Positions 1,758-14,317 of a DNA stretch of 17,177 nucleotides are shown here, in pieces; the stretch's first letter is position 1; each line of letters starts with the position of its first letter. Under the pieces are notes generated by a model that had not been told where the DNA came from, ran no database searches, and worked only from the letters and a program-made list of their open reading frames with translations. The stretch covers positions 1-17,177 of IMG/VR virus record IMGVR_UViG_2671181056_000008; one strand, 5' to 3'. The translations under genes were made by a program, and so were the position numbers. The DNA is from a virus (lineage: Duplodnaviria > Heunggongvirae > Uroviricota > Caudoviricetes).

Positions 1758-1843
1758 TACATGAAAGAAGCTCACTCAGTGCAACTGATCGGTACATAGC
1801 ACCAGACAAAGGAACGTTATTTTCTCGAACAAGAAAAGGTAGA

Positions 1844-1877
1844 AAACAAATTGTTTAAGGCCACAACTAGTGGCCTT
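1844..1877. repeat. 13-bp palindrome AAACAAATTGTTT followed by GC hairpin, copy 1 of a composite element
   Basis: Perfect palindrome 1844-1856; hairpin aaggccac (1857-1864) / gtggcctt (1870-1877), 5-nt loop. Near-identical element at 6964-6997. Confidence 0.6.
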
Positions 1878-1893
1878 AATGGAGAAGGGATGC

Positions 1894-2457
1894 TTATTGG
1901 CTATGGCTAAAAATCAAATGAGACACTTCATTTGGTTGTAGCTCGTCAAGATCCGGGGCCACAAAACCTTTTCCGAAAGACTTCACAAGTGATTCACCAG
2001 CCGCATCATTGTCACCTATTACGCGAAAGTCATACGGCAGCATTGCCAGTTGACGACGTAATCCTGCTGAGAAAGTCGAACCTAACAGCGCCCACGAATT
2101 TCCGCCCGCGTTGTGCACTGCTGCACTTTTAAAAATCGACTCAGTTATCCATATCGGTCCATCTTTTAAAGGAAGATAGGTTCCCCATAGTAGCTGTCTG
2201 CCGTGCGCTCGTGTGAAATACCGGGCCATCTTCGGATTGCTATGCTGCTTAGGAGCGCCTGGTCTGTATGTCTGATACCCGGCCAACATCCCATCAAACC
2301 TGTATAGAGGGAATGTAACAACTCCTTCGCTTTCATCGATCCACTGTCTATATGGATGCACATCATAGCGGTAGTTACGAGTTAGCAAATGAGCTTCCAG
2401 CTTTCCAAATTTAGTCATAACTTCGCATCCCTCATAACACTTCCCATTTATCACCAT
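1894..2457 (-). CDS. small Toprim-domain protein (DnaG-type motifs)
   Basis: C-terminal half aligns by eye to DnaG Toprim: ITES (catalytic Glu), LGST, VIGDNDAAGE (DxD). Alternative start at 2418 (MTKFGK) avoids the 26-nt overlap with the upstream gene. Confidence 0.6.
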   Translation of the reverse strand: MVINGKCYEGCEVMTKFGKLEAHLLTRNYRYDVHPYRQWIDESEGVVTFPLYRFDGMLAGYQTYRPGAPKQHSNPKMARYFTRAHGRQLLWGTYLPLKDGPIWITESIFKSAAVHNAGGNSWALLGSTFSAGLRRQLAMLPYDFRVIGDNDAAGESLVKSFGKGFVAPDLDELQPNEVSHLIFSHSQ

Positions 2458-3286
2458 ATTTCTCCATAGCTCTTAGCCAATAAACATGGCCACTAGGCAT
2501 AGTGATGTGAGGCTCGCCAAACTCTTCTCCATGTACATCAAAGATGTCCCCAACAGAAAATTGGGGGATTTCTGTTCCGTTTTCACCTATATGTGTAATT
2601 CGTATACGTTTCGGTTGGGATTGTCCACCTTTGAGCGAGTTGTTCACTGCTCTGGCAATTTTCTCCCGCAATTGCTGCGTTCCGTGATACGTAACCGCAA
2701 TATCCCGCAACTCATTCACTAGTTCTCGAATTTGGTGATCTTTAAGCTCATTATTTGGGTGATTGGTAACAACTCTGGTTAATTCCCCATTGTCTTTTGC
2801 TCTTACGTATGCAGCTCTTGTGCATTCGCCCCATGTATTACCGCCTACATTAACTTCGTAGATTAGGCTGGACTTATCTGTCAATTCGGAACAAATACGG
2901 GCCGTGGTCTGGCAACTAGAGCATTCGCAGTTATCGCGGAAACCGTGGTCTACTGGCTTCGGTTTAACATCATCAACTTTTTCTACCCTATTGGAATTTA
3001 AATACTTCGAAGCCTTGCTATGCCAATCGCTGGTTTTAGGATCTTGTCCATCCATCAAACGCCAGGCTTCAGCTATTAACTCATAACTAGTGACTGTAGC
3101 TTCCTGCGCATCACCAATAAGTCGTGTAATCTCTCTTTCAAGCCGACCGCCTAACTCCGTTTTAGTGCAATGTTCTGACCAATCGCCAGTCTCAAGAAGC
3201 GCGAGAATGCTTAAAATATCGTCCAATAGAACGGTAGTATTATCGACTTCCTTCTGAAACTCACCGGCTACTGATTTATGCATCAT
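2432..3286 (-). CDS. hypothetical protein, 284 aa, with CxCxxC cysteine cluster
   Basis: Long ORF; start ATG overlaps the upstream stop (ATGA); no family recognised. Confidence 0.6.
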   Translation of the reverse strand: MMHKSVAGEFQKEVDNTTVLLDDILSILALLETGDWSEHCTKTELGGRLEREITRLIGDAQEATVTSYELIAEAWRLMDGQDPKTSDWHSKASKYLNSNRVEKVDDVKPKPVDHGFRDNCECSSCQTTARICSELTDKSSLIYEVNVGGNTWGECTRAAYVRAKDNGELTRVVTNHPNNELKDHQIRELVNELRDIAVTYHGTQQLREKIARAVNNSLKGGQSQPKRIRITHIGENGTEIPQFSVGDIFDVHGEEFGEPHITMPSGHVYWLRAMEKYGDKWEVL

Positions 3287-3504
3287 TCGTCATCCTCATC
3301 CGAGTCATCCTCATCACAGGATGAGAGTAGTGGGTTAGTCATTCGCCCTACTTGAGTGGCGTAGCAACGCCGACAGAGATTGCGCAGCACACTGTATATT
3401 TCGAACATCTCGGTTCGTTCATCGCCAACATCAAGCTCAGATGCTATAGCGTGGCATTCAGTCGCGAGAGCCGATATTTTCTGAAATAACTCTGCTTTAT
3501 TCAC
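3283..3504 (-). CDS. hypothetical small protein, 73 aa, acidic C-terminus (CDEDDSDEDDE)
   Basis: GTG start at 3504 preceded by AGGAG with 7-nt spacer; overlaps the DUF551-like gene stop. The 93-aa ORF in the track has no ribosome-binding site at its ATG. Confidence 0.35.
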   Translation of the reverse strand: MNKAELFQKISALATECHAIASELDVGDERTEMFEIYSVLRNLCRRCYATQVGRMTNPLLSSCDEDDSDEDDE

Positions 3505-4072
3505 TCTTCGACTCCTGCGGAGGTTCTGGTAGCGGCATCCAGTGAGTTGCTTGCTCAATACCATTACCCGGCTTAATCGTTACATCTCCGCGCCGAAAGG
3601 TGATTCCGGTATAGCGTGCGGAGCATATTAGCGGTTCAACCAGAGAGCTATCGAAATTCACCGAAATAAGCACGTTCTGGCCCTTTTCAGGCATTCGCTC
3701 ACTACAGCTTATCCAACCATCCGGAGTTACCGGATGGGGTCCAGCGAACTCGGGAATGTCAGGACCTTTTCTGATAGCTTTAGCCAGATCCAGCGGGTCA
3801 TCGTAAAGCCAGTCGCCAGTTTGTGGGTGATTTGCTTCTGCAAGCTGCGCAGCCCATTCAAGACCATCTTTTTGACCTTGGAGATAATCAAGCGGCAACT
3901 CTTCATGATTACTTGCAGGTTCTGCACTATCAGCTTCGCGCCGCTTCTGTAGCTCTGCTGCCATCGCTCTCACGACTTCAACTGGTGCCCTTGCAGCAAA
4001 CTCTATGTTGGTGATCAGCTCATTAAGATATTGCTCGCCTGGATACTGTTTCTTATCGGTTATAGTGGTCAT
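3497..4072 (-). CDS. DUF551-like phage protein
   Basis: 191 aa from ATG at 4072 (GGAGAGTGAT upstream); C-terminal segment with THWMPLPEPP resembles the DUF551 signature as recalled. Confidence 0.6.
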   Translation of the reverse strand: MTTITDKKQYPGEQYLNELITNIEFAARAPVEVVRAMAAELQKRREADSAEPASNHEELPLDYLQGQKDGLEWAAQLAEANHPQTGDWLYDDPLDLAKAIRKGPDIPEFAGPHPVTPDGWISCSERMPEKGQNVLISVNFDSSLVEPLICSARYTGITFRRGDVTIKPGNGIEQATHWMPLPEPPQESKSE

Positions 4073-4073
4073 A

Positions 4074-4460
4074 TCACTCTCCTTTTCCCTGAAGCATAGC
4101 AGCGCGGCAGGCATTCCAGCCTCTCACCTCTGCAATAGCGGCAACAGCATCAACCGCGTACATGCTAAGAGGATTAGGCATTGGTTTTTCTTCCGGTACT
4201 ACTGGAACGGGTGGAGCGGCGTAGACCTCAATAATTCCATTATCAATAGGCCATTCTCCATCCTTGAGGTAGTCACTTGTGCCGTCAACTTGCTGTTCTG
4301 CAATGTGGAATGCACCTATTGGTTTTGCTTCCAGCGATGCCAGAGCAATTCGTGCCAGTTCTTCCGCTTCTTCTGCTGGCAGTACAACGTTGCTACCAGG
4401 TCCGTATGTTTCGCGCCACTGTTTGATTGTCAGTAGTCGCTCTTTGGTAATAGTGGTCAT
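4074..4460 (-). CDS. hypothetical protein, 128 aa
   Basis: ATG at 4460 preceded by AAGGAG; C-terminus ends KGE immediately before the next gene's start. Confidence 0.6.
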   Translation of the reverse strand: MTTITKERLLTIKQWRETYGPGSNVVLPAEEAEELARIALASLEAKPIGAFHIAEQQVDGTSDYLKDGEWPIDNGIIEVYAAPPVPVVPEEKPMPNPLSMYAVDAVAAIAEVRGWNACRAAMLQGKGE

Positions 4461-4470
4461 GTGTTACTCC

Positions 4471-4734
4471 TTAACCCGCAGTGCTTTCAACTGATGAGGG
4501 GAACAAAATCCTTTCATCAAATCCGGCATTCATATCATGGACAGCAACACACCAATCCATCGACGAACGATTATCAAGAGCCTCCATGATTTCATCCATG
4601 CGGCGCAGGTCATACAGGTAAATGCTTTTATCGCCAATGGTGTAAAAACCAATTTTTTTCGGTGATGGGCAGCGATCAAGAACGTCCTGTAATTCGTTCA
4701 ACCATGCCCGTTCTTTTTTTGTTAAAGTTGCCAT
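4471..4734 (-). CDS. hypothetical protein, 87 aa
   Basis: ATG at 4734 (MATLTKKERAW) one nt after the upstream stop, preceded by GGAGAGTGAT. Confidence 0.55.
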   Translation of the reverse strand: MATLTKKERAWLNELQDVLDRCPSPKKIGFYTIGDKSIYLYDLRRMDEIMEALDNRSSMDWCVAVHDMNAGFDERILFPSSVESTAG

Positions 4735-4735
4735 A

Positions 4736-5257
4736 TCACTCTCCTTTGATGCGAATGCCTGCTGCAATGCTGTTTATGATGCTGTCAGTGCATGGAGTAG
4801 AAAGCTGGGCATCTCCAGCAATTTTCATGACCTCAACATCCGCATATCGAATACCGAGGTGTATCAGACCGGCTATACCTGACTTAAGTCGAACATTTTC
4901 CATAAACAGATCTTTTTCCCGCTGTTTAGCGGCTTCCAACTCCATCGACAATTTTTCCAACTGCTCTTTATGCTTCTTGTATTCCTGATACGCGTGCCAA
5001 GACTGACCTTTGCGCACACTATCAGTGATATCAGCAACCTGCTCCGGTGTTAGCGTGGTCAGTGGCTGTGCTGGAAAAATCATCACTTTCCCGGCATCCC
5101 AATCAAAACCCGCCTGAATTGACTGAACCTCAACTGATGGTGTTGAACCGATGCGACCAGGCGAATGAACAACGATCGTTACATCCATATCGCGACGATG
5201 GCTGTGGTTGTTGGACAAAATACGATTCACCAACTCAGAAAATTTGGAAAATTTCAT
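4736..5257 (-). CDS. hypothetical protein with Ea22-like C-terminus (AAGIRIKGE)
   Basis: 173 aa from ATG at 5257 (AAGAGGGA upstream, ATGA overlap with the upstream stop); last 9 residues identical to those of the 5579..6109 product. Confidence 0.6.
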
Positions 5258-5577
5258 GCTGATCCCTCTTTCTCTCCCCGGATAATTCTGTTGCACACAT
5301 CCACACACTCGTCGCAGATGAAAACGGCGTCCCCAGCAATTAACTTTTTGACGGCGTACTGGGATTTGTTGCAGAAGCTGCAACAAAGTGTTCGCCTGAC
5401 TGATAAGGATGGAGCGCCAGATGTCAGCCGCTCCATATCGTTCTTGCGACGCAATATCACACGGCTGAACTCAACCAGTTTCTCCGGGGATATCTCCTCC
5501 TCCGTAGCAAGCGCCTCTAATCGTTCGAGTATGTGGAAGGCTTTTTTCTGGGTAATTGCAGAATGCGATGTGGTCAT
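5254..5577 (-). CDS. small protein with C-terminal ClpX-type C4 zinc-binding domain
   Basis: 107 aa; [38 protein letters not shown] closely matches the ClpX N-terminal zinc-binding domain (CSFCGKSQ...RKLIAG...YICDECVDLCNDIIREE) with all four Cys; ATG at 5577 behind GGAGAGTGAG. Confidence 0.75.
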
Positions 5578-5578
5578 C

Positions 5579-6109
5579 TCACTCTCCTTTGATGCGAATG
5601 CCAGCGGCGCGGGAATCATTCCATCGCTTTACTTCTTCACGAATTACGTCAATGCATTCTTTCGAATCCATTAGGTAATCTTCATCAAAAAGACGTTCCT
5701 GTTCGTTTTCTATCGCAACAATGATTGCTTCAACTAACTTTTGTGCCTGAGAATCACTTTCTAACTCTGCTATGCGCTTACTTCCATCCGAGATAACGCC
5801 CTCGTAATACTCACGCTGCTCGTTGAGTTTTGATTTTGCCAACTCCAGTTGTTTTGTTAGTTCCGCAATACGGCAAACATCGTTGATACGCGTTTCCTCT
5901 AATGCGTTGATCTCATCCAGTAGTGCCAGCACGGTTTCTGGTCCGGCCAGAAATTTGAAGGCGTTGAGGGCATCAATATCAACACCGCTATCTTTAAGTT
6001 CCTGTTCACTTAACAAGTCATCATCAGCTGGCAACATTAACAGGCGTTCCATTGCTGGAATTGCACGTTCCGCCACCTCACGCAGTGCCTGGTAATTAAT
6101 TTCGCTCAC
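5579..6109 (-). CDS. Ead/Ea22-like family protein
   Basis: 176 aa; GTG start at 6109 behind GGAGG; MSEIN N-terminus, [27 protein letters not shown] block and AGIRIKGE C-terminus match lambda Ea22-like proteins as recalled (unverified). Confidence 0.65.
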
Positions 6110-6350
6110 TGGCTGCCTCCTGCTTTTCTGCCTTCAACACCATGCGAGAACCATCATCCAGCTCCCACACTATCTCACCACCTTCAGCCATGACCAGTTG
6201 CCACACCAATTGAGCAGCCTCATTGGTAACATCACGACCTGGATCATTGCCAACGCGCATACGTCCACCTTCAACATCGCGCATTTTTGCCAGCATGATA
6301 GTTTTTGATAGCGGTGAAAAACCAAGCTGTAGTCGTGCTGAATTACTCAC
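6096..6350 (-). CDS. hypothetical protein, 84 aa
   Basis: GTG start overlapping the upstream TGA (GTGA), preceded by GGAGG at 6-nt spacing. Confidence 0.5.
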   Translation of the reverse strand: MSNSARLQLGFSPLSKTIMLAKMRDVEGGRMRVGNDPGRDVTNEAAQLVWQLVMAEGGEIVWELDDGSRMVLKAEKQEAASERN

Positions 6351-6889
6351 TGGTTGCCTCCTTTGCGAAGCTGGGCAGCAAAGTCAACTAACCACTCAGT
6401 CATTTCAACCTTCCCTACCAGGTCTGAACCAGGGTGCATACAGCAATCACTCTGCGCCGCTTTGAAATCCTTATACTCATATTCTTGGGCCACCAGATTT
6501 TTTGCAGCTTCTATAGCAGCATCCACCCCCTGCGCACGTACTTCAGCCAGAAAAGCATCGGTGGCTGGAGTCTCCGTTAATTCGCTAACCCAATTATCTC
6601 CGTGTTCCTCGGCACACATCGCATCGAATGCTCGCTCAGATTCTTTCAGGGCTGCATTCTCCGCCGCTAATGCGTCTCTCTGCGCCCGCAACTTCTCAAT
6701 TTCGGCAGCCATGTAGTAACCAACCATAGCGAAGACGGCAAAAGAGTTGTCTGCCTCATCAGGCGACACTGAGGCCATTAGCAGACCATCGTAATAATCG
6801 TGACTCCCATTGGTGATCGCCACCTCATAGGAGTCGTGGTTCTCACGCTTGTGAATGAGAACTACGGGGTTTTCGATTTTGTTACTCAT
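6347..6889 (-). CDS. hypothetical protein, 180 aa
   Basis: ATG at 6889 preceded by AAGAGAAAAACAC, a leader shared with three other genes; first gene after the 6964-6997 element. Confidence 0.6.
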   Translation of the reverse strand: MSNKIENPVVLIHKRENHDSYEVAITNGSHDYYDGLLMASVSPDEADNSFAVFAMVGYYMAAEIEKLRAQRDALAAENAALKESERAFDAMCAEEHGDNWVSELTETPATDAFLAEVRAQGVDAAIEAAKNLVAQEYEYKDFKAAQSDCCMHPGSDLVGKVEMTEWLVDFAAQLRKGGNQ

Positions 6890-6963
6890 GTGTTTTTCTC
6901 TTCTTTGCTGTTACATAAGCACTACCAAGTGCTGGTTTATTTTCACAAATAAGAAAATGTAGA

Positions 6964-6997
6964 AAACAATTTATTTAAGGCCACAACTTATGGCCTT
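6964..6997. repeat. composite element copy 2: degenerate palindrome AAACAATTTATTT plus GC hairpin
   Basis: Hairpin aaggcca (6977-6983) / tggcctt (6991-6997), 7-nt loop; about 85 percent identical to 1841-1880 over roughly 45 bp. Confidence 0.6.
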
Positions 6998-7027
6998 TAT
7001 TTATTCATGCCGAAGGATTTGTAGCGT

Positions 7028-7408
7028 CTAATTGCCGTATAAAATGGGGTGAGGTGCTTGCCAGTAGGCTCCACCGGTCCATGTGAACCCCATGCGAATA
7101 AGAGTGTTTATTGCGGCTTTGGTAGACTCCGATTCGACACTGGCTTTACGAAACTCTTGAACCTCTTTCGCCAACCTGTATGTAATTGTGCAGGGGACGA
7201 TTGCAGCCCAGCCTTTCTCATGACTGTTAATGACCATCTGGATGTGACCATCCAGAATAGGTTGATTAGACATGTTATTGAAAATGTCTGCCTGTTTTTG
7301 AATGTGAAGAAAAAGCCTTGCCAGCTCCATTTGCTCACTACGAGACAAGGGATTATCAAGAGGGCTTTTTGCAAAAGCGGCTATACGCTGTGCGTCAATG
7401 CCAAACAT
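7028..7408 (-). CDS. hypothetical protein, 126 aa
   Basis: ATG overlaps the upstream stop by one nt (TGATG); no family recognised. Confidence 0.55.
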   Translation of the reverse strand: MFGIDAQRIAAFAKSPLDNPLSRSEQMELARLFLHIQKQADIFNNMSNQPILDGHIQMVINSHEKGWAAIVPCTITYRLAKEVQEFRKASVESESTKAAINTLIRMGFTWTGGAYWQAPHPILYGN

Positions 7409-8112
7409 CAGCGCACCTCACCATCTTTATGGCTGGAGTTAACTTCCGCCATTAAATGTCTGACGTAATCGACAAGAGAGCCACCTGGTGGAATCTGGCA
7501 TTCCTCAACTAACTGGAAGTAGATATCCGCAGCATTACGTGTATTGCTACCCGCGCATATTCTTTCTTCCCGAAGTGCATGAAGCTCGTTGATCAAACGG
7601 TCACACTCTCCGTTACGCTGATCCACAACAGCCTCAAGTTCTGCGACGCGTTCACCTGGCGTCTTACCTTCTTCGCGTTGGATGGTAACGACGAAATCGC
7701 CAATTGCAGGGACGTTGTAATCCAGCTCAAGGTAGTTTTTGGCACCGCTGCGGACGAACTCACCCGCGAACATGGTGGCGAACATCTCAGAGGCCATTGT
7801 GCTGTTGAAAAGTGACTCCAGATCTAACGGAGTCCCGGCAGCCAGAGCCTCTTTTGCTGTATCCATTGTATCCATGAACCGATCAAACTCATTAGCGCGC
7901 TTTTCCAGGTCTTTCCATTGCTCGCTCCAACGTTTGGCAATGAAGTCTATGAATGTTTTCGCGGATTCATCAAAATCCCCCTCAAACTTAACGATGCCTT
8001 TATCAATAATGATCTGGCCTACCGCATCCTCTGCATAACCTTTCAATGTAAACTTGAAAGGAAAATCAGAATGGCCTGTGACGTTAAAATGCTCTAACTG
8101 GAGGTTGTTCAT
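7408..8112 (-). CDS. hypothetical protein, 234 aa
   Basis: ATG at 8112 preceded by AAGAGAAAAACAT; no family recognised. Confidence 0.6.
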   Translation of the reverse strand: MNNLQLEHFNVTGHSDFPFKFTLKGYAEDAVGQIIIDKGIVKFEGDFDESAKTFIDFIAKRWSEQWKDLEKRANEFDRFMDTMDTAKEALAAGTPLDLESLFNSTMASEMFATMFAGEFVRSGAKNYLELDYNVPAIGDFVVTIQREEGKTPGERVAELEAVVDQRNGECDRLINELHALREERICAGSNTRNAADIYFQLVEECQIPPGGSLVDYVRHLMAEVNSSHKDGEVR

Positions 8113-8173
8113 ATGTTTTTCTCTTATCGTTTAGTTATTACATTCTTACACAAATTAAGTAAGTATTTACCTA

Positions 8174-9859
8174 TCATTTAACGCGTTTGAAAACGTATAC
8201 GCTGACTGTGATCCCTGTGTCTTCAAACTCGTTGGTAAACGACTTCCCTCTGGCATAAACGTAATTATCCATCGTCATCCAGTCCAGTATTGGCGCAGTG
8301 CCCGGCAATACTGCTACAAGACGCCCGCCGACTTTCAGATGCCCCAGCGCAGCCAGCGTGTGCTCTCTATGACGACCAAGCGAGTACGGCGGGTTCATAA
8401 CGATTTTGTCGAACTGATAACCTGCGTTGTCCTCAGACCACTTTATGAAGTCGCAGCAAATCGTGTTCGTATACCCTTTTCCACGCAGGATATCAGCGAA
8501 GAGAGGTGCGATTTCTATGCAGGTAACATCTTCCAGATCGGCGTTAATATAGGCCAGAAGATCCCCACGTCCGGCTTGAGGCTCCAACAGCTTCTCACCA
8601 GGCTTCAATTCAGTGGCTCTGGCAACGTACTCAGCAATCAAGCGTGGGGTAGGGTAGAACTGGTGTGATTTTGTATCCGGTATTAAACCGGTAGCCACAA
8701 TCGTATTTAGCGTATGGCCGATCTCATACGGGAACTGCCAGTGCTTTTTCTCCTGCACGCCGCCAATGAAGCTCAGTGTGCGCTCAAGCTCTTCCACCTG
8801 CGACTTCTGGAGAGCTGAATCAGAGAAGTACCATACGCCTTTGTCTTTGCTCAATCGCCCGTCACGAAGCGCAGTGCGAACCGGCACGGAGATCGTCTTC
8901 TGGATTAACCCGAACTGCTTTGGTGCCCGTGTTTTTGGCGCAGTTCGGCATGGCGCGGGGATTGCAGCAGGCATACTGTAAGCCAGCACCTCATTCAACT
9001 TCCAGGCCACGTCAGGATGTATTTCAAAGTGAACGTTGCCGTTCTTGAACATCTTCACGCGCATCAGATTTCCATCGACGTTCATCCAGTCACCGGTCTG
9101 GCAGTCGTTTGCCCGATACGCAGCTGATAGCACCTCAGCAGTGCGGTTGATGGTAATAAATTCTTTGTGCGCGAAGAAATGAAGCAAGACACGCAGATCG
9201 TCGATGTAGTCCTCTTTGCGATAGTTCACGCTAACGCTGTCACGCCAGAAATCAGAAATGCAGTCAGCGATTATCAGACGCTCGCTGAAACCGTTTGTCT
9301 TATTTGTCTTGTGCGCAGGACTCAGCGCCTTAAACAAGCCATACACGCGCTCAGAGAGATATTTGTGCCTGTCATTCAGCAAATTAAGCATCGTTGGTAT
9401 GACCGTTTCTGCTTTGAACTCCGGTACACCAACGAACTCTTTAACCTTCATCTGATAGCCGGTTCTGTCAGTTTTGATGACTTCCTGCTTGCCCTCGATA
9501 AATAGCTCACGCCACTCGTCGCGACGGGAAGCTGGCATGATCAGCAGAACGTTAGTCATATCCGTAACCTTCCTCCAGTACTCGGCCCAAATATTCTGTT
9601 TCACCCATTCCAGATCGACGTTATCCAGCCAGACTCGATTCAAACGTGAGCGATCTTCATCTGGTCGGTGGTTTAGTCGAAGCAGGCGATTAATCATGTT
9701 GTGGCGTTCATCGCCATAAACGAAGTCGTGTACCTGATACATGAAGGAGATCTCTTTCTCGCACTCGGCCACAATTTCGTGGATGACGTTCATTTCCTGT
9801 CGATAGTCGATAGCAGTGTTTGAGCTGGCATCGCCCATGATGGAAAGGGCTGTATTCAT
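8174..9859 (-). CDS. two-domain protein with C-terminal N6-adenine DNA methyltransferase domain
   Basis: 561 aa; FYPTP, then SAM-binding EPQAGRGDLL, then NPPY about 70 residues later (gamma-like motif order), only about 55 residues after NPPY; N-terminal 400 aa unassigned. Confidence 0.85.
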   Translation of the reverse strand: MNTALSIMGDASSNTAIDYRQEMNVIHEIVAECEKEISFMYQVHDFVYGDERHNMINRLLRLNHRPDEDRSRLNRVWLDNVDLEWVKQNIWAEYWRKVTDMTNVLLIMPASRRDEWRELFIEGKQEVIKTDRTGYQMKVKEFVGVPEFKAETVIPTMLNLLNDRHKYLSERVYGLFKALSPAHKTNKTNGFSERLIIADCISDFWRDSVSVNYRKEDYIDDLRVLLHFFAHKEFITINRTAEVLSAAYRANDCQTGDWMNVDGNLMRVKMFKNGNVHFEIHPDVAWKLNEVLAYSMPAAIPAPCRTAPKTRAPKQFGLIQKTISVPVRTALRDGRLSKDKGVWYFSDSALQKSQVEELERTLSFIGGVQEKKHWQFPYEIGHTLNTIVATGLIPDTKSHQFYPTPRLIAEYVARATELKPGEKLLEPQAGRGDLLAYINADLEDVTCIEIAPLFADILRGKGYTNTICCDFIKWSEDNAGYQFDKIVMNPPYSLGRHREHTLAALGHLKVGGRLVAVLPGTAPILDWMTMDNYVYARGKSFTNEFEDTGITVSVYVFKRVK

Positions 9860-9962
9860 AATTGCACCATTAAGAAATGATTTGTTTAATGATGCAATTA
9901 TTTCAAAAATAAAAAGGTGCTAAATAGAAATTAACAGGCAATACTTAAAATAAAGGCATTGA

Positions 9963-10864
9963 CTAATCATACTTGGATGTATTTATAACCAGGACTTTAT
10001 TTGTATATAGTTTTTTTACATTCCATGTAACATTACTTGAATACCATTCACCATTATATATTTGGTTTCCCGTTGCGCCTGTCATTGTTACGTATACAGG
10101 TCTGTCGTAAGGTGTTCGTCTATAGTTATATACTCCAACCATTGCAGGCATTATCGCACACGGGTATCCCATATTTATGGTAAATTGAGGATTTGTAATA
10201 GTGATAATCTCTGCATCAAGGGGCATCATCTCACCGTGATATACCATTTTACCTGCGCTATTATACATGGCAATACCATATCCTGAATGTGGTAACACCA
10301 TATCAGAAAAAGCATAAACTGTTATCGTTCCGGGGTTTCCTCCAACCTGATTCAGTCTGAGAACATTATACCCATCTCTAAATTCATGAACGAACATCAT
10401 ATTCGCCTTATTACTGCTTTTTATAAAGAAAAAACATGATTTGTTCGACGGTATTGAAGTCTTAAAAACAGAACCTTTAGACGTGGACATTGTCCCCCTA
10501 TTAATCAAATTTTGCGGTGTAAATTCTGGACTCATCCACACATTACCATTTGACTGAGTAATTGACATCCCGAACATTATTGTTATCCCCAATATGTATA
10601 TATATAAGATCCAAGTCCCTTGTATAAATTTGACCAACTTACTGTATTGCCGTTAATAGTGATAGTTGGTGTAGGTATATTTACATGGTTATCGTTATTT
10701 AAAGGCATCAATGAGCACACAGCATGTAATGATTTGCCAGGTGGTGGATTTGGGTAAGTCTTAGAGCCTGACGTGGTTGTAAATCGATCAAGAAAAAAAA
10801 TAGGAGTAAGGAAGCCGGTAACGTTAACTCCCTTATTATTGTAGATCCCTGTACCGTATGCCAT
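9963..10864 (-). pseudogene. AT-rich gene split into two frames at a (TA)5 tract
   Basis: Frame A (10583..10864, 93 aa) has a good ribosome-binding site; frame B (9963..10637) continues 200+ aa from a TTG. Frames differ by one nt and the (TA)5 tract at 10597-10606 lies in the overlap; removing one TA fuses them. Confidence 0.4.
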
Positions 10865-10890
10865 TTTTCATCCTTGTTTTTATCAACATA

Positions 10891-10914
10891 ATATGGCCGA
10901 TCATGCGGCCATAT
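10891..10914. terminator. inverted repeat ATATGGCCG-N6-CGGCCATAT, candidate terminator
   Basis: 9-bp perfect stem with 6-nt loop, 4 nt after the 10919 stop; followed on the minus strand by a T-rich stretch. Confidence 0.45.
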
Positions 10915-10918
10915 CAGA

Positions 10919-11488
10919 TCAATTAGAGCTTTGAAAGGCTTTGTGTGGCTGTGTTGCGAGGTTATGTCGATGGCTTAACTCACGCATCATGTCTTCAAGG
11001 CGACTCTTTGTGTCGTCGAGTTGGTCAGCCATTGCTCCTAAAAGCTGACGAACTACCATCGGATCGTCGCTGTTTAGTGATGGCATTTTATAACCCGCCT
11101 GAGAAGACATCAGATTGAATGCTGACATCAACATCGTTAGAGAGGATTTAAGCCCGGCAATTTCACGATCTTTGCTGGCAATAATCGTCTCACTTTTGTT
11201 ACTGTCATGAGTTCCTTGAGTCTCGATCACCATATCCAAAGTCTCTTGCAACTTATCAGCTCTCTGTTTTTCAGCAAGATAATGAACACCGAAATGATGT
11301 GCTAAAGCTACAACCTGAGTTGGCTCTTCAAAGGTGGACTCAAAATTAAGTGCTGTAACCACTCTCTCAAAAATGGAAACGTCTTCTATTCCTCGAAGAA
11401 TGGCTAACATTTTGACAAGTTCATTAGCATCCATTTCTTCGAATAGGGCGTTTTGTTCATCAGCTATTGCTTTGCATTTCTCGCACAT
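10919..11488 (-). CDS. hypothetical protein, 189 aa
   Basis: ATG at 11488 preceded by AAGGAAAACAT; leader carries the palindrome at 11507-11519. Confidence 0.6.
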   Translation of the reverse strand: MCEKCKAIADEQNALFEEMDANELVKMLAILRGIEDVSIFERVVTALNFESTFEEPTQVVALAHHFGVHYLAEKQRADKLQETLDMVIETQGTHDSNKSETIIASKDREIAGLKSSLTMLMSAFNLMSSQAGYKMPSLNSDDPMVVRQLLGAMADQLDDTKSRLEDMMRELSHRHNLATQPHKAFQSSN

Positions 11489-11506
11489 ATGTTTTCCTTA
11501 ATGCTT

Positions 11507-11522
11507 AAACAAGTTGTTTTCT
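11507..11522. promoter_or_regulatory. palindrome AAACAAGTTGTTT (operator-like), copy 3
   Basis: Perfect 13-bp palindrome 19 nt upstream of the 11488 start; the 16-mer aaacaagttgttttct is identical to 12236-12251. Confidence 0.5.
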
Positions 11523-11627
11523 TATTGGCTTTATTGTGATGTGGCATAAAAGGGGAGCAAGCTAAACGTAAAGGTGCAAACTCTCTATTTCGGTCAACGA
11601 AACACAATGGCCATTTGACCCTTGTCA

Positions 11628-11786
11628 TTAACACGTTGCTTTACGGACTAGCGGATAAGCGAAGTAGATCGCCAGACCAATGAGGACGCCATCAGAAATG
11701 ACAGACATCATCTTTCCCGTAAAATCCACCAACACCGCCATCACCAGAAGAGCAATGACGGTCACAAGCCGGAATCTCTCAAGCAT
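11628..11786 (-). CDS. small hydrophobic peptide, 52 aa, two predicted TM helices (not in ORF track)
   Basis: ATG at 11786 overlaps the TerB-like stop (TAATG); hand translation gives MLERFRLVTVIALLVMAVLVDFTGKMMSVISDGVLIGLAIYFAYPLVRKATC, stop at 11628-11630. Confidence 0.4.
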   Translation of the reverse strand: MLERFRLVTVIALLVMAVLVDFTGKMMSVISDGVLIGLAIYFAYPLVRKATC

Positions 11787-12211
11787 TAGAGATAAGCATC
11801 CAGTGACAACTGAAGCGCCTGGGCGATCTTTTTCAGCGCCTGCTCTTCTGGTTCATCAATGCCGTCTTGGTCGGCAATATCAAGGCACAGACAAAGTACA
11901 TCTACTGCATCATCAGTCCCGGCCACATCCGCCAGCTCACGTAAAGCCTGGGCATTAGCACGGCGCGGTGAGGCTTCGTATTGAGCGCGGATATTGGCGC
12001 TCATCTGGGCTATCTCACCAGCAAAAGGAGAAAATGCAGGCAGAGCTGCAATTGTTTTCTCAAGAATGGAAATTTCTTTTGCATCGCATGTACCGTTGGC
12101 ATAGGAGATCATGTACCCACCCCACACGGTGGCTTCAACCGCATCACGGTTCTCCATTTTTTTGACTTCGATAACTGCTTTACGAGTTTTCTTTTTGAAG
12201 AAACCTAACAT
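11786..12211 (-). CDS. TerB-like domain protein
   Basis: 141 aa; MLGFFKKK N-terminus and C-terminal DIADQDGIDEPEEQALKKIAQALQL resemble tellurite-resistance TerB as recalled; ATG behind AAGGAAAACAC. Confidence 0.6.
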   Translation of the reverse strand: MLGFFKKKTRKAVIEVKKMENRDAVEATVWGGYMISYANGTCDAKEISILEKTIAALPAFSPFAGEIAQMSANIRAQYEASPRRANAQALRELADVAGTDDAVDVLCLCLDIADQDGIDEPEEQALKKIAQALQLSLDAYL

Positions 12212-12235
12212 GTGTTTTCCTTTTGTTATTGGTCA

Positions 12236-12251
12236 AAACAAGTTGTTTTCT
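12236..12251. promoter_or_regulatory. palindrome AAACAAGTTGTTT (operator-like), copy 4
   Basis: Perfect 13-bp palindrome 25 nt upstream of the TerB-like start; same 16-mer as copy 3. Confidence 0.5.
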
Positions 12252-12304
12252 AGTTAAATAAATTGCTTACGCAAAGACGGTCAATGCATATGCACTAACA
12301 ACCG

Positions 12305-12502: not shown

Positions 12503-12997
12503 TTAGTCACAGCATGATCCTGAGTAACTGGATGAACTTGAGGTATCGCATCCACCGTCATCCCATCCAGAGTGACAGGTCGCTCTACTGGAGTGGTGGT
12601 AATTGTCGTCGACGGAGGTGTGGTGATGGATGAATCCGGCATCAAAAGGCTCTGACCGGCTGGAACGGCTACCGTCGCCAGTGAAACTATAATGAGAACG
12701 TAGGCCATTGGTTTCAGCCTCTTTCTTTGAAAATTTTCCATTCGAACTGTCCTTGTTGTTTTTCTCCTTCACTAAAGGCCGTGCATTTTTCGCTTCGCGT
12801 GAAGAACCAGAGGCAACAATCGCCCACACGTTCGCAACAACTGACGCTTGATTATCTAAACGTTCATTCAGCAACCGAACGGTAGTCTCTAGTTCATCAA
12901 GGCGTGACATAACACGACCGCTAAATAATTCGGCCAAAATTTGACGTAAAGAACGAGGACGTTTAGTTACAGAAGTGAAATAGGTTTGACGTGCCAT
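12503..12997 (-). CDS. hypothetical protein, 165 aa, with a second signal-peptide ORF nested out of frame
   Basis: ATG at 12997 behind GGAG; N-terminal 60 aa protein-like, C-terminal half Ser-rich low complexity and overlapped by 12490..12741 (signal-peptide-like MAYVLIIVSLATVAVPAGQSLL). Which frame is expressed is unresolved. Confidence 0.45.
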   Translation of the reverse strand: MARQTYFTSVTKRPRSLRQILAELFSGRVMSRLDELETTVRLLNERLDNQASVVANVWAIVASGSSREAKNARPLVKEKNNKDSSNGKFSKKEAETNGLRSHYSFTGDGSRSSRSEPFDAGFIHHHTSVDDNYHHSSRATCHSGWDDGGCDTSSSSSYSGSCCD

Positions 12998-13026: not shown

Positions 13027-13048
13027 GCGGCTGGCAATCGCCAGCCGC
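13027..13048. terminator. GC-rich hairpin, candidate terminator or attenuator
   Basis: 9-bp stem gcggctggc / gccagccgc with 4-nt loop, immediately upstream of the 12503..12997 gene; U-tract weak on the minus strand, better (CTTTCTCGTT) on the plus strand. Confidence 0.4.
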
Positions 13049-13142
13049 CTTTCTCGTTCCATCCTGGAACTGTGTCTTACCGACACATTGTCATCCTGAC
13101 GCCGATAAGATACATGATTTATAATGATAGGTAAACACTTAC

Positions 13143-13736
13143 TTACTGTTTGTTATAAACAAAACCAATATCTTTCTTGTGAGGCATATCTGCTGCTGAA
13201 AAAGCTGCGATCTTCGCGAGTCGATCACATATTTCATTTTCACGATGCCCGGCGTGACCTTTAACCCACTTCCAGCGAACATTATGTCGACTTGCGGCCT
13301 CATCCAGACGCTTCCACAGATCAACATTCTTTACCGGTTTTTTGTCAGAAGTCATCCATCCATTGCGTTTCCACCATTTCATCCACTGTGTCATGCCGTT
13401 TTTCAGATACTGGCTATCAGAGTGCAAAATAACGTTGCATGGATATTTCAAACGCTCCAGCCCGATAAGTGCCCCCATCATCTCCATGCGGTTATTGGTG
13501 GTGCTATGAAAACCATCTGAGAACTCGCGTTCCTCGCCACGATACTGGAGAACGATACCGTAACCGCCCGGGCCACCCGGATTTTTAAGGCAAGAGCCAT
13601 CACTAAAGATTTTCACGGTTTTAAGCTGGGGATTGAACTCTACGACAGGCGTTGTGGGATTGGTGCGGGGAGAATTTTTGTTTTTGTCTTTTTTGCGAGT
13701 TTTTGCTTGCGGTCGGGCTGGTGTCTTCGTTGTCAT
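13143..13736 (-). CDS. rnhA: ribonuclease HI homologue with basic N-terminal extension
   Basis: 197 aa from ATG at 13736 (AGGAG upstream); core [17 protein letters not shown]...TNNRMEMMG...HSDSQY...[11 protein letters not shown] aligns closely to E. coli RnhA; about 40-residue Lys/Arg/Pro-rich N-terminal extension. Confidence 0.9.
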
Positions 13737-14317
13737 ATAAACTCCTGAATCAAGCGCCGCGCCGATTTTTCCTCGCGCGTGCGCACACGCGTGCGTGTTA
13801 ATAATTATTAAAATAAACAAATTACTTCCCAGAACAGGTTTTTATAAACCTGAACTGAACGAACGAAGTGAGTGAAGTTCACCTCGAACGAAGTGAGAGG
13901 TTGTCTTTTCAGGTAATACTCTCCCAGGGAGGTGAGTATAAAATTCCTCACCAACCTGGTCGTTTCATAACCTGAAAAGCTATGGTCTAAGTCTACTGCC
14001 AGCTTAGACTTGGGAAGTTATGGATGACAGCACCCCAGAACCGAGATCTTCCCACACTTTATGAAGGGGAGTACTGGATTCAACCTCTCGAAACACCCCA
14101 GACTCGACAATCATAAAGTGACCCTTGTCTCCGCTCACTTTGGTTCCCCCTTCCCCGACACCTAAACGGCACCGGTTCTACGCTGGTAGTGAGCTTTTTT
14201 AAACCTGACGCCAGTGACGCTTACCCCCACCCATCAGGTCGAGTCTCCAGTCTACGACTGGAAACTATCAGATCTTAGCACTTACAATTCATCTTATGAA
14301 TAGTTTGTACTTATCTA
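13737..14317. other. 580-bp ORF-free structured region (candidate ncRNA, origin or regulatory hub)
   Basis: No ORF of 60 aa or more; 25-nt alternating purine-pyrimidine tract (13774-13798), 14-bp AT palindrome (13798-13811), 13-bp direct repeat (13860-13872, 13885-13897), several hairpins, repeated CACCCCAGA, two AGATCT sites. Confidence 0.4.

Follow-up and report, generated by a model that had tools for sequence, protein, structure and literature searches.

A one-sided 16-bp palindromic site recurs in the intergenic DNA of SSU5-like phage-plasmids and is a candidate operator at about 20 promoter regions

SSU5-type phage-plasmids are common, including pHCM2 of S. Typhi, Cyrano/pLF82 and many plasmids of E. 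coli, Klebsiella and Enterobacter, some of which may bear resistance genes. The choice between plasmid maintenance and lytic growth in these elements is essentially unexplained, and for the control of lysogeny a review and the study of Cyrano name only a 'putative repressor' (PMC11652158, PMC9928086). The virus record IMGVR_UViG_2671181056_000008 (17,177 bp, the whole stretch of DNA analysed here and referred to below as the window) belongs to such an element and carries, between its genes, four copies of the 13-bp palindrome AAACAA-N-TTGTTT. This raises the question of whether the copies form one shared regulatory site, what kind of molecule reads it and with what effect. The searched literature yielded no prior description of the motif strings, of operators or regulation in SSU5 or pHCM2, or of an Sm-like fold for FljA. 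Judged from its sequence, distribution and placement, the palindrome is, with somewhat better than even confidence, a DNA operator at which a single dimeric regulator encoded by the element acts, probably as a repressor.

Recurrence of the palindrome in the window and across SSU5-like elements

The window is part of an SSU5-like phage-plasmid of approximately 109 kb, which it matches at 99.8-100% identity in the records of plasmid p09EL50 of E. coli O104:H4 2009EL-2050 (add 30002 to a window coordinate for the position in this record) and of phage CMS-2020a. Identity is 96-98% with phages PhiR41_1 and Cyrano and about 83% with Salmonella phage SSU5, in the last case along part of the window. 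A preliminary description of this DNA, made from the letters of the window, had spoken of an island and of related prophages; the element is a phage-plasmid and not a chromosomal island or prophage. The minus strand carries every gene of the window except apbC, so the motifs must be read in the minus orientation.

Four copies of AAACAA-N-TTGTTT in the window compare with 0.12 expected, and none of 200 dinucleotide shuffles reached four. The same holds for the whole element: p09EL50, in which intergenic DNA makes up 12.6% (13.8 kb, against 95.6 kb of coding DNA), contains 19 sites with at most one mismatch, 19 of 19 intergenic and none in the coding DNA, whereas a first-order Markov model of its own intergenic DNA predicts 0.18 sites and gave a maximum of 2 in 300 simulations. 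The motif is thus about 100-fold enriched and exclusively intergenic. Extension of the scan to relatives, as the preliminary description had proposed, returned between 18 and 20 sites per genome, namely 20 in SSU5 (those mapped against the annotation are all intergenic), 18 in Cyrano and 18 in the distant but syntenic Klebsiella oxytoca plasmid CP056499.1, the proteins of which are typically 45-75% identical to their p09EL50 counterparts. When all perfect 6-N-6 palindromes were counted without preselection, AAACAA-N-TTGTTT was present in 9, 11 and 10 perfect copies in three genomes, and no other 6-N-6 palindrome with a gap of one exceeded two copies in the same three. A similar frequency in background DNA would have spoken against a dedicated site; 818 kb of chromosomal DNA, mostly from enterobacterial genomes and originally fetched for another purpose, contained no perfect and two one-mismatch copies (0.24 per 100 kb), compared with 16-19 per 100 kb in the phage-plasmids, which makes the motif about 70-fold rarer in that background. 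Chance and AT-richness are therefore ruled out by the shuffles, the simulation of intergenic DNA and the chromosomal background alike. Among IMG/VR records, contigs with multiple sites belong to relatives of the SSU5 kind and carry as many as 10 sites in 11 kb, and single matches elsewhere, together with three apparent outliers (AT-rich or unrelated contigs), were attributed to chance.

The site is also maintained as a footprint despite divergence of its flanks in SSU5 and in the K. oxytoca relative; for example, p09EL50 and K. oxytoca share the same 13-mer upstream of the TerB-family gene, with diverged sequence around it. The sites are densest among small accessory genes. Taken together, the enrichment, the intergenic restriction, the footprint conservation and the fixed geometry described below bear out the proposal that one shared cis-regulatory site serves several transcription units. 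The features of the window that bear on this are given below, with scores from a position weight matrix (PWM); types A and B are the two arrangements of the site relative to a predicted promoter that are defined in the next section.

1819-1824, minus strand: -10-like hexamer GAAAAT, 19 nt downstream of copy 1, belonging to a type B promoter predicted from sequence
1841-1856, plus strand: copy 1, type B, 16-mer AGAAAACAAATTGTTT, read on the gene (minus) strand as AAACAATTTGTTTTCT; perfect core at 1844-1856; 21.5 bits
1857-1877, minus strand: terminator-like GC hairpin aaggccac-N5-gtggcctt, abutting copy 1, 37 nt past the upstream stop
6939-6947, minus strand: extended -10-like element of a predicted type B promoter, TGtGAAAAT, 16 nt past copy 2 in the direction of the gene
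6961-6976, plus strand: copy 2, type B, 16-mer AGAAAACAATTTATTT; core at 6964-6976 with one mismatch; 16.6 bits
6977-6997, minus strand: GC hairpin aaaggccat-aagt-tgtggcctt, abutting copy 2, 51 nt past the upstream stop codon
9875-9887, minus strand: degenerate fifth copy, AAACAAATCATTT on the gene strand; two mismatches; 10.6 bits
11507-11522, minus strand: copy 3, type A, 16-mer AGAAAACAACTTGTTT; 22.6 bits
12236-12251, minus strand: copy 4, type A, 16-mer AGAAAACAACTTGTTT; 22.6 bits
12256-12268, minus strand: weak, half-decayed match, 7 nt upstream of copy 4; two mismatches; 9.0 bits

The positions first reported for the four copies were all correct, with perfect cores at 1844-1856, 11507-11519 and 12236-12248 and one mismatch at 6964-6976. 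Copies 3 and 4 are indeed identical over 16 bp on the gene strand (AGAAAACAACTTGTTT) and precede the same start context, AAGGAAAACA(T/C)ATG; their distance from it, first put at 19-25 nt, is 18 nt between the core of copy 3 and the ATG of gene 10919-11488 and 24 nt between the core of copy 4 and the ATG of the TerB-family gene 11786-12211. Copy 3 has orthologs at SSU5 81745 and Cyrano 81278. Copy 1 lies between the stop of a toprim gene (1894) and a umuD-like gene (1332-1721), and copy 2 lies upstream of an eae-like gene (6347-6889), its Cyrano ortholog being the site at 85818. The joining of both to GC hairpins is confirmed, and the block that they share is longer than the 45 bp first given, comprising about 62 nt with the hairpin, the palindrome and then TCTAC.TTTTCTT.TT.G.GAAAATAA. 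The GAAAAT block can be aligned across four type B sites. The hairpin of copy 1 was caught by a terminator scan on the minus strand (1879 to 1855, 10 pairs, with the tail ACAATTTGTT, an interrupted T-run), whereas that of copy 2 was flagged on the plus strand only and not on the gene strand; the hairpin-plus-palindrome module of copy 1 also occurs twice in SSU5. Placement 'always in non-coding leaders' holds as to the intergenic location but not as to the leader for copies 1 and 2, which lie upstream of the -10-like element. The degenerate fifth copy stands 15 nt upstream of a DUF4942 methyltransferase-like gene (8174-9859), and the orthologous position in SSU5 (82468) is a perfect type A site. 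Shuffled windows yield 0.9 sites of at least 8 bits, so the significance of the match at 12256-12268 is uncertain.

Several other elements were seen beside these sites. A short hairpin, AGCACT-accA-AGTGCT (6918-6933), is located downstream of the predicted type B promoter of copy 2, within the putative leader of gene 6347-6889. A second, rarer palindrome, TAAGTA-NN-TACTTA, is the sole other recurrent palindrome in these genomes and is found in AT-rich intergenic spots (p09EL50 5031 and 67127; SSU5 9072, 21938, 41774 and 55700). In p09EL50, 1.5 kb without an annotated gene (25779-27321; SSU5 about 90400-91500) contains a conserved copy of the main palindrome at 26971 (SSU5 90740), the flanks of which are also conserved (cccgttgcgtta...), and this region may represent a non-coding RNA or unannotated small genes.

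Anatomy of the site and its geometry at predicted promoters

The fine structure of the site was determined from a position profile of 25 type A sites of p09EL50 and SSU5, anchored on the palindrome, with the information content calculated for each position. The conserved element is a one-sided 16-mer, AGA-AAACAA-N-TTGTTT (AGAAAACAAnTTGTTT), with no mirror partner of the AGA on the other side; the G at -2 is present in 25 of the 25 sites. The reading of the palindrome as a dimeric operator thus stands as regards a shared site, and the plain symmetric palindrome gives way to a one-sided 16-mer with strict orientation. Further upstream, a T at -14 is invariant in the 25 sites and follows A-rich positions, as would the last base of a -10 hexamer (GATAAT, TATTAT), and a TTG signal occupies -41 to -39. 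Type A sites accordingly show the order -35, -10, 11-14 nt (..CCAAcAAGA), palindrome, Shine-Dalgarno sequence and ATG, always in the sense orientation and 11-35 nt before the ATG, with conservation of the spacer GCC.TTTT and of CCAAcAAGA. If transcription starts 6-8 nt past the -10, the core of type A sites is predicted to lie at about +6 to +18.

In type B sites the 16-mer is inverted, and a sequence of extended -10 form, TGnGAAAAT or TGnGATAAT, comes 16-20 nt after it; p09EL50, SSU5 and K. oxytoca have this element at most of their type B sites. This group includes copies 1 and 2, two more sites of p09EL50, several of SSU5 and most of those of K. oxytoca. The end of the palindrome with the adjoining ACT or TCT makes a -35-like TTTACT or TTTTCT, type B promoters otherwise lacking a convincing -35, and the centre of the site falls near -38. 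The AGA/TCT extension points towards the -10 in type A and type B alike. Sites of both types also occur as pairs exactly 51 bp apart (p09EL50 27908/27857; SSU5 88319/88370), and two sites 25 bp apart lie upstream of the late (terS) operon. The terS leader itself (p09EL50 13029-13223; SSU5 1-133) continues after its two sites with a hairpin that has a T-run, AGAGCGC..GCGCTCT, followed by GTGTGTTTT; this terminator-like element suggests that the late genes need antitermination or read-through control.

In the mechanism proposed here, the 16-bp site would be built into about 20 sigma-70-type promoter regions over the whole SSU5-like phage-plasmid, and one element-encoded dimeric regulator would switch these transcription units together. 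At type A sites such as copies 3 and 4, protein bound at about +6 to +18 would block RNA polymerase, whereas at type B sites, among them copies 1 and 2, it would lie over the -35 zone of the extended -10 promoter and stop polymerase from binding; the sites 51 bp apart that flank some promoters may allow cooperative binding. A protein-binding DNA site is favoured over an RNA element because variant copies change one side only, the RNA hairpin would be unstable, type B sites stand upstream of the -10 and so are untranscribed from that promoter, and the 13-mer is kept while its flanks diverge. Specifically, the variant copies show no compensatory substitutions, and the palindrome folded as RNA (5 bp, 3-nt loop) has a free energy of +0.3 kcal/mol and does not appear when the leaders of copies 3 and 4 are folded to minimum free energy. 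A structured RNA hairpin was rejected on these grounds of instability and lack of covariation, together with an Rfam search that gave no match in the window.

Expression in lysogens was available for Cyrano from a supplementary table (PMC9928086), with a median background of 9.8 normalised counts. The first genes after the Cyrano sites are mostly at or near background (5.7-12.8), including the orthologs behind copies 2, 3 and 4. This low expression fits a set of repressed promoters, with low power since most phage genes are silent in lysogens. Ciprofloxacin induces Cyrano 39-fold. As a separate observation, a near-consensus LexA (SOS) box, TACTGTGTAAATGAACAGTA, occurs on the gene strand at 1738-1757 (core CTGT-N8-ACAG at 1740-1755, the sole such core in the window), adjoining the upstream side of the umuD-like S24 peptidase gene (1332-1721); the Cyrano ortholog of this gene, CYRAN_98, is expressed at 148 against 9.8 in lysogens and at a still higher level inside macrophages.

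Candidate binders and rival explanations

The statement that the window encodes no such regulator is upheld in that no plausible one is encoded there, and the candidates are encoded by other parts of the element. Foremost among these possible binders is an 88-amino-acid winged-helix protein outside the window (p09EL50 13224-13490 = SSU5_130 = CYRAN_123), the gene of which stands directly upstream of the double site at terS and the late operon. It is among the best-conserved small proteins (89% and 74% identity), 15 diverse homologs all have the same putative recognition helix, and it is encoded wherever the site is conserved; searches gave no Pfam or PDB sequence match. The second candidate is an FljA-family protein (p09EL50 20198-20722; SSU5_121; CYRAN_114), annotated only as 'transcriptional regulator', which matches PF03614 over its full length (E 9e-80 and 3e-81) and is 35% identical to a genuine Salmonella FljA (P0087, NCBI-named FljA). 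A 36% homolog is encoded directly after a flagellin gene, and the context of P0075, a 'chromosomal' FljA-like match without a flagellin neighbour, is uninformative. Its fold, a tandem Sm/Hfq-like domain, is compatible with RNA binding. Binding through likeness to the fliC leader was considered for this protein and, the weight-matrix match not being significant, it was downgraded to a rival. The helix-turn-helix (HTH) 'putative repressor' beside the integrase (CYRAN_45), which is expressed in lysogens, was set aside as an unlikely binder: it has no homolog in SSU5 though the identical site is found there, and its own divergent control region is devoid of the palindrome. The element also encodes two ParB-family proteins (PF02195), which nothing ties to the site, and searches of other conserved small proteins against Pfam, NCBIfam and PHROGs were uninformative.

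Several observations weigh against a repressing DNA operator read by the 88-amino-acid protein. Some genes preceded by the motif are still transcribed in lysogens, with the ParA gene (CYRAN_28) at 49.8, about five times the background, and further exceptions are CYRAN_111 (25.5) and the DnaB gene (21.1). The 88-amino-acid candidate is itself silent in lysogens (7.8), so that, if it is the binder, the site acts in lytic growth and not in the maintenance of lysogeny, and something else must explain the silence of the lysogen. A strict sigma-70 consensus scan flagged no promoters upstream of the copies in the window, and promoter-like matches in the window are not enriched (22 found against 28.2 expected); the promoter assignments therefore rest on the position-specific profile and not on strong hexamers, and the promoters and transcription starts at the sites are predicted. 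Protein binding at the sites and the sign of regulation are likewise inferred, and the strict sense orientation of type A beside the Shine-Dalgarno sequence would also fit an element acting at the level of RNA.

Such RNA-level control is the first of the rivals to be weighed. The 16-mer, transcribed at the 5' end of the leader (AGAAAACAAnUUGUUU), would be bound by the FljA-family protein, which would block the ribosome and destabilise the mRNA. Salmonella FljA, a repressor of fliC mRNA that has been characterised as post-transcriptional or translational, reportedly acts in this way at the fliC leader (PMC2652032; bioRxiv 10.1101/2025.10.27.684867). The protein is confined to SSU5-like elements among 50,697 phage records and its gene is transcribed in lysogens (log2 7-8, against 3-4 for silent genes), the type A sites are all sense and close to the ATG, and the fliC leader of Salmonella contains CAAGTTGT in the context of CCAATAA and AAGGAAAA, that of Citrobacter having CAAGTTGT in similar surroundings, as confirmed in genomes. 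However, the fliC leader scores 2.3 bits with the PWM, whereas real sites reach 17 or more, and 0.17% of background positions do as well; type B sites, the majority in K. oxytoca, would escape transcription from their own promoter; the K. oxytoca plasmid has the 13-mer unchanged, whereas identity of its FljA-like protein is down to 25% and the conserved N-terminal motif is absent from it; and the palindrome forms no stable RNA hairpin. We regard this account as unlikely, and as slightly less likely its full form, in which an Hfq-like FljA-family protein made from the plasmid-prophage silences about 15 phage mRNAs through the leader AGAAAACAAnUUGUUU beside the ribosome-binding site, lysogeny of SSU5-type phage-plasmids is held in part by translational control and Salmonella FljA is a domesticated copy of the phage-plasmid regulator. 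A dual or positive control, in which one protein activates type B promoters from about -38 (class II-like) and represses type A from +12, would turn the site into a temporal switch (early-to-middle or late) and not a lysogeny operator. Type B promoters without a good -35 and with the site centred near -38 would suit it, as would the 88-amino-acid winged-helix gene being a lytic-phase gene immediately upstream of the late operon with its two sites and leader terminator hairpin, and the silence of motif-preceded genes in lysogens, where this protein is not made. Extended -10 promoters can nevertheless work without an activator, activation itself is without direct evidence, and orthologous genes are type A in one genome and type B-rich in another, which is easier to understand if both positions repress; we place the chance of dual control on a par with that of the RNA-level account and likewise regard it as unlikely.

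Two further explanations would dispense with a dedicated element-encoded regulator. The module of hairpin, palindrome and promoter may have spread by recombination among accessory genes as a mobile promoter cassette, in keeping with conservation beyond the palindrome (the block of about 60 nt at copies 1 and 2, and the spacer and CCAAcAAGA of type A) and with the density of sites among small accessory genes. The 13-mer is, however, far better conserved than the remainder and intact at orthologous loci with diverged flanks, and types A and B differ in where it stands and which way it faces with respect to the promoter; such spread accounts for copy number but not for selective maintenance, and as the whole explanation it appears very unlikely. 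The site might otherwise belong to a host DNA-binding protein common to E. coli, Salmonella and Klebsiella, such as the integration host factor (IHF), the consensus of which is WATCAANNNNTTR: the 13-mer does not differ between elements that have only about 55-60% identity in their own proteins, it contains CAAnnnnTTT in both orientations and each of its halves has CAA-N4-TT. A host regulon would leave copies in the chromosome, whereas the 818 kb are nearly without the site, and IHF sites are degenerate and not palindromic; we know of no host factor with this consensus, and this origin seems the least credible of those considered.

Neighbouring features, significance and known systems

Some features of the window are unconnected with the palindrome or touch it only in passing. 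Positions 1-36 are the 5' end of metG, which encodes a full methionyl-tRNA synthetase and is a host-like housekeeping gene, and 194-1294, on the opposite strand to the others, is an apbC/Mrp-type Fe-S carrier gene that is also host-like; the apbC-type gene of Cyrano (CYRAN_99) reaches 92 in the lysogen, where the background is 9.8. The inverted arrangement TTTGTT-ATA-AACAAA (TTTGTTATAAACAAA), which had been put forward as a relative of the palindrome, is present at 13149-13163 in the last codons of rnhA, but the kinship was not borne out: rnhA of SSU5 is without it, no other independent copies were found, and it is probably unrelated. Between gene 12503-12997 and rnhA, a strong symmetric GC hairpin (GCGGCTGGC-gatt-GCCAGCCGC, 13027-13048; nine pairs, eight of them G-C) was flagged by the terminator scan on both strands and is likely a bidirectional terminator. 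The 581 bp between rnhA and the next gene (13737-14317) contain no annotated gene in p09EL50 and gave no Rfam match; the equivalent region of Cyrano holds CYRAN_81 (44 amino acids), strongly expressed in lysogens (117 against 9.8), and the stretch may be a small RNA or peptide gene that has escaped recognition.

A 16-bp site at about 20 promoter regions, present throughout the group, offers direct experimental access to the circuit of these phage-plasmids. It can be used as bait in pull-downs, to map a regulon and as a marker for transcription units in poorly annotated genomes, and the analysis leaves two concrete candidates for its reader, the 88-amino-acid winged-helix protein and the Hfq-like FljA homolog.

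P1 and the IncP plasmids are well-known precedents for one regulator acting on many dispersed operators. In the phage-plasmid P1, a plasmid-prophage of about 100 kb, many dispersed copies of the C1 operator overlap the promoters of lytic units and are read by one protein. Here, too, many dispersed copies of one short site are restricted to non-coding DNA; the P1 operators, however, are asymmetric 17-mers and unrelated to the 6-N-6 core with its one-sided AGA, the HTH repressor-like gene of the present group is absent from SSU5, and its best candidate is unexpressed in lysogens. KorA and KorB of IncP-1 plasmids act at sites repeated about a dozen times at or near backbone promoters. The KorB operator O_B (TTTAGCSGCTAAA) is, like the present site, a 13-bp palindrome with an unspecified central base, and ParB-family proteins are encoded in both systems; the sequences are unrelated, and the sites here are fixed at +12 or -38 whereas KorB distances are variable.

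The likeness to FljA and fliC lies in an encoded FljA-family protein, in the position of type A sites in a predicted 5' leader before the Shine-Dalgarno sequence and in the shared CAAGTTGT core. It is offset by the lack of a significant match in the fliC leader, by the location of about one quarter of the sites (as many as half in K. oxytoca) upstream of promoters, and by a motif that stays identical where the FljA-like protein has diverged. Compared with MarR and PadR regulators, the winged-helix candidate is short (88 amino acids against about 144 for MarR) and is unmatched in Pfam and PDB, its dimerisation and DNA binding being putative. The promoter-stem-loop cassettes of T4-type phages combine a hairpin with an early promoter between small accessory genes, and copies 1 and 2 similarly form a module of hairpin and promoter between small genes, but here a specific palindrome is kept irrespective of the cassette and is also seen where there is no hairpin. 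Together, these comparisons suggest that the system resembles the dispersed operators of P1 and the IncP plasmids in the way it would work, while by sequence it belongs to neither family.

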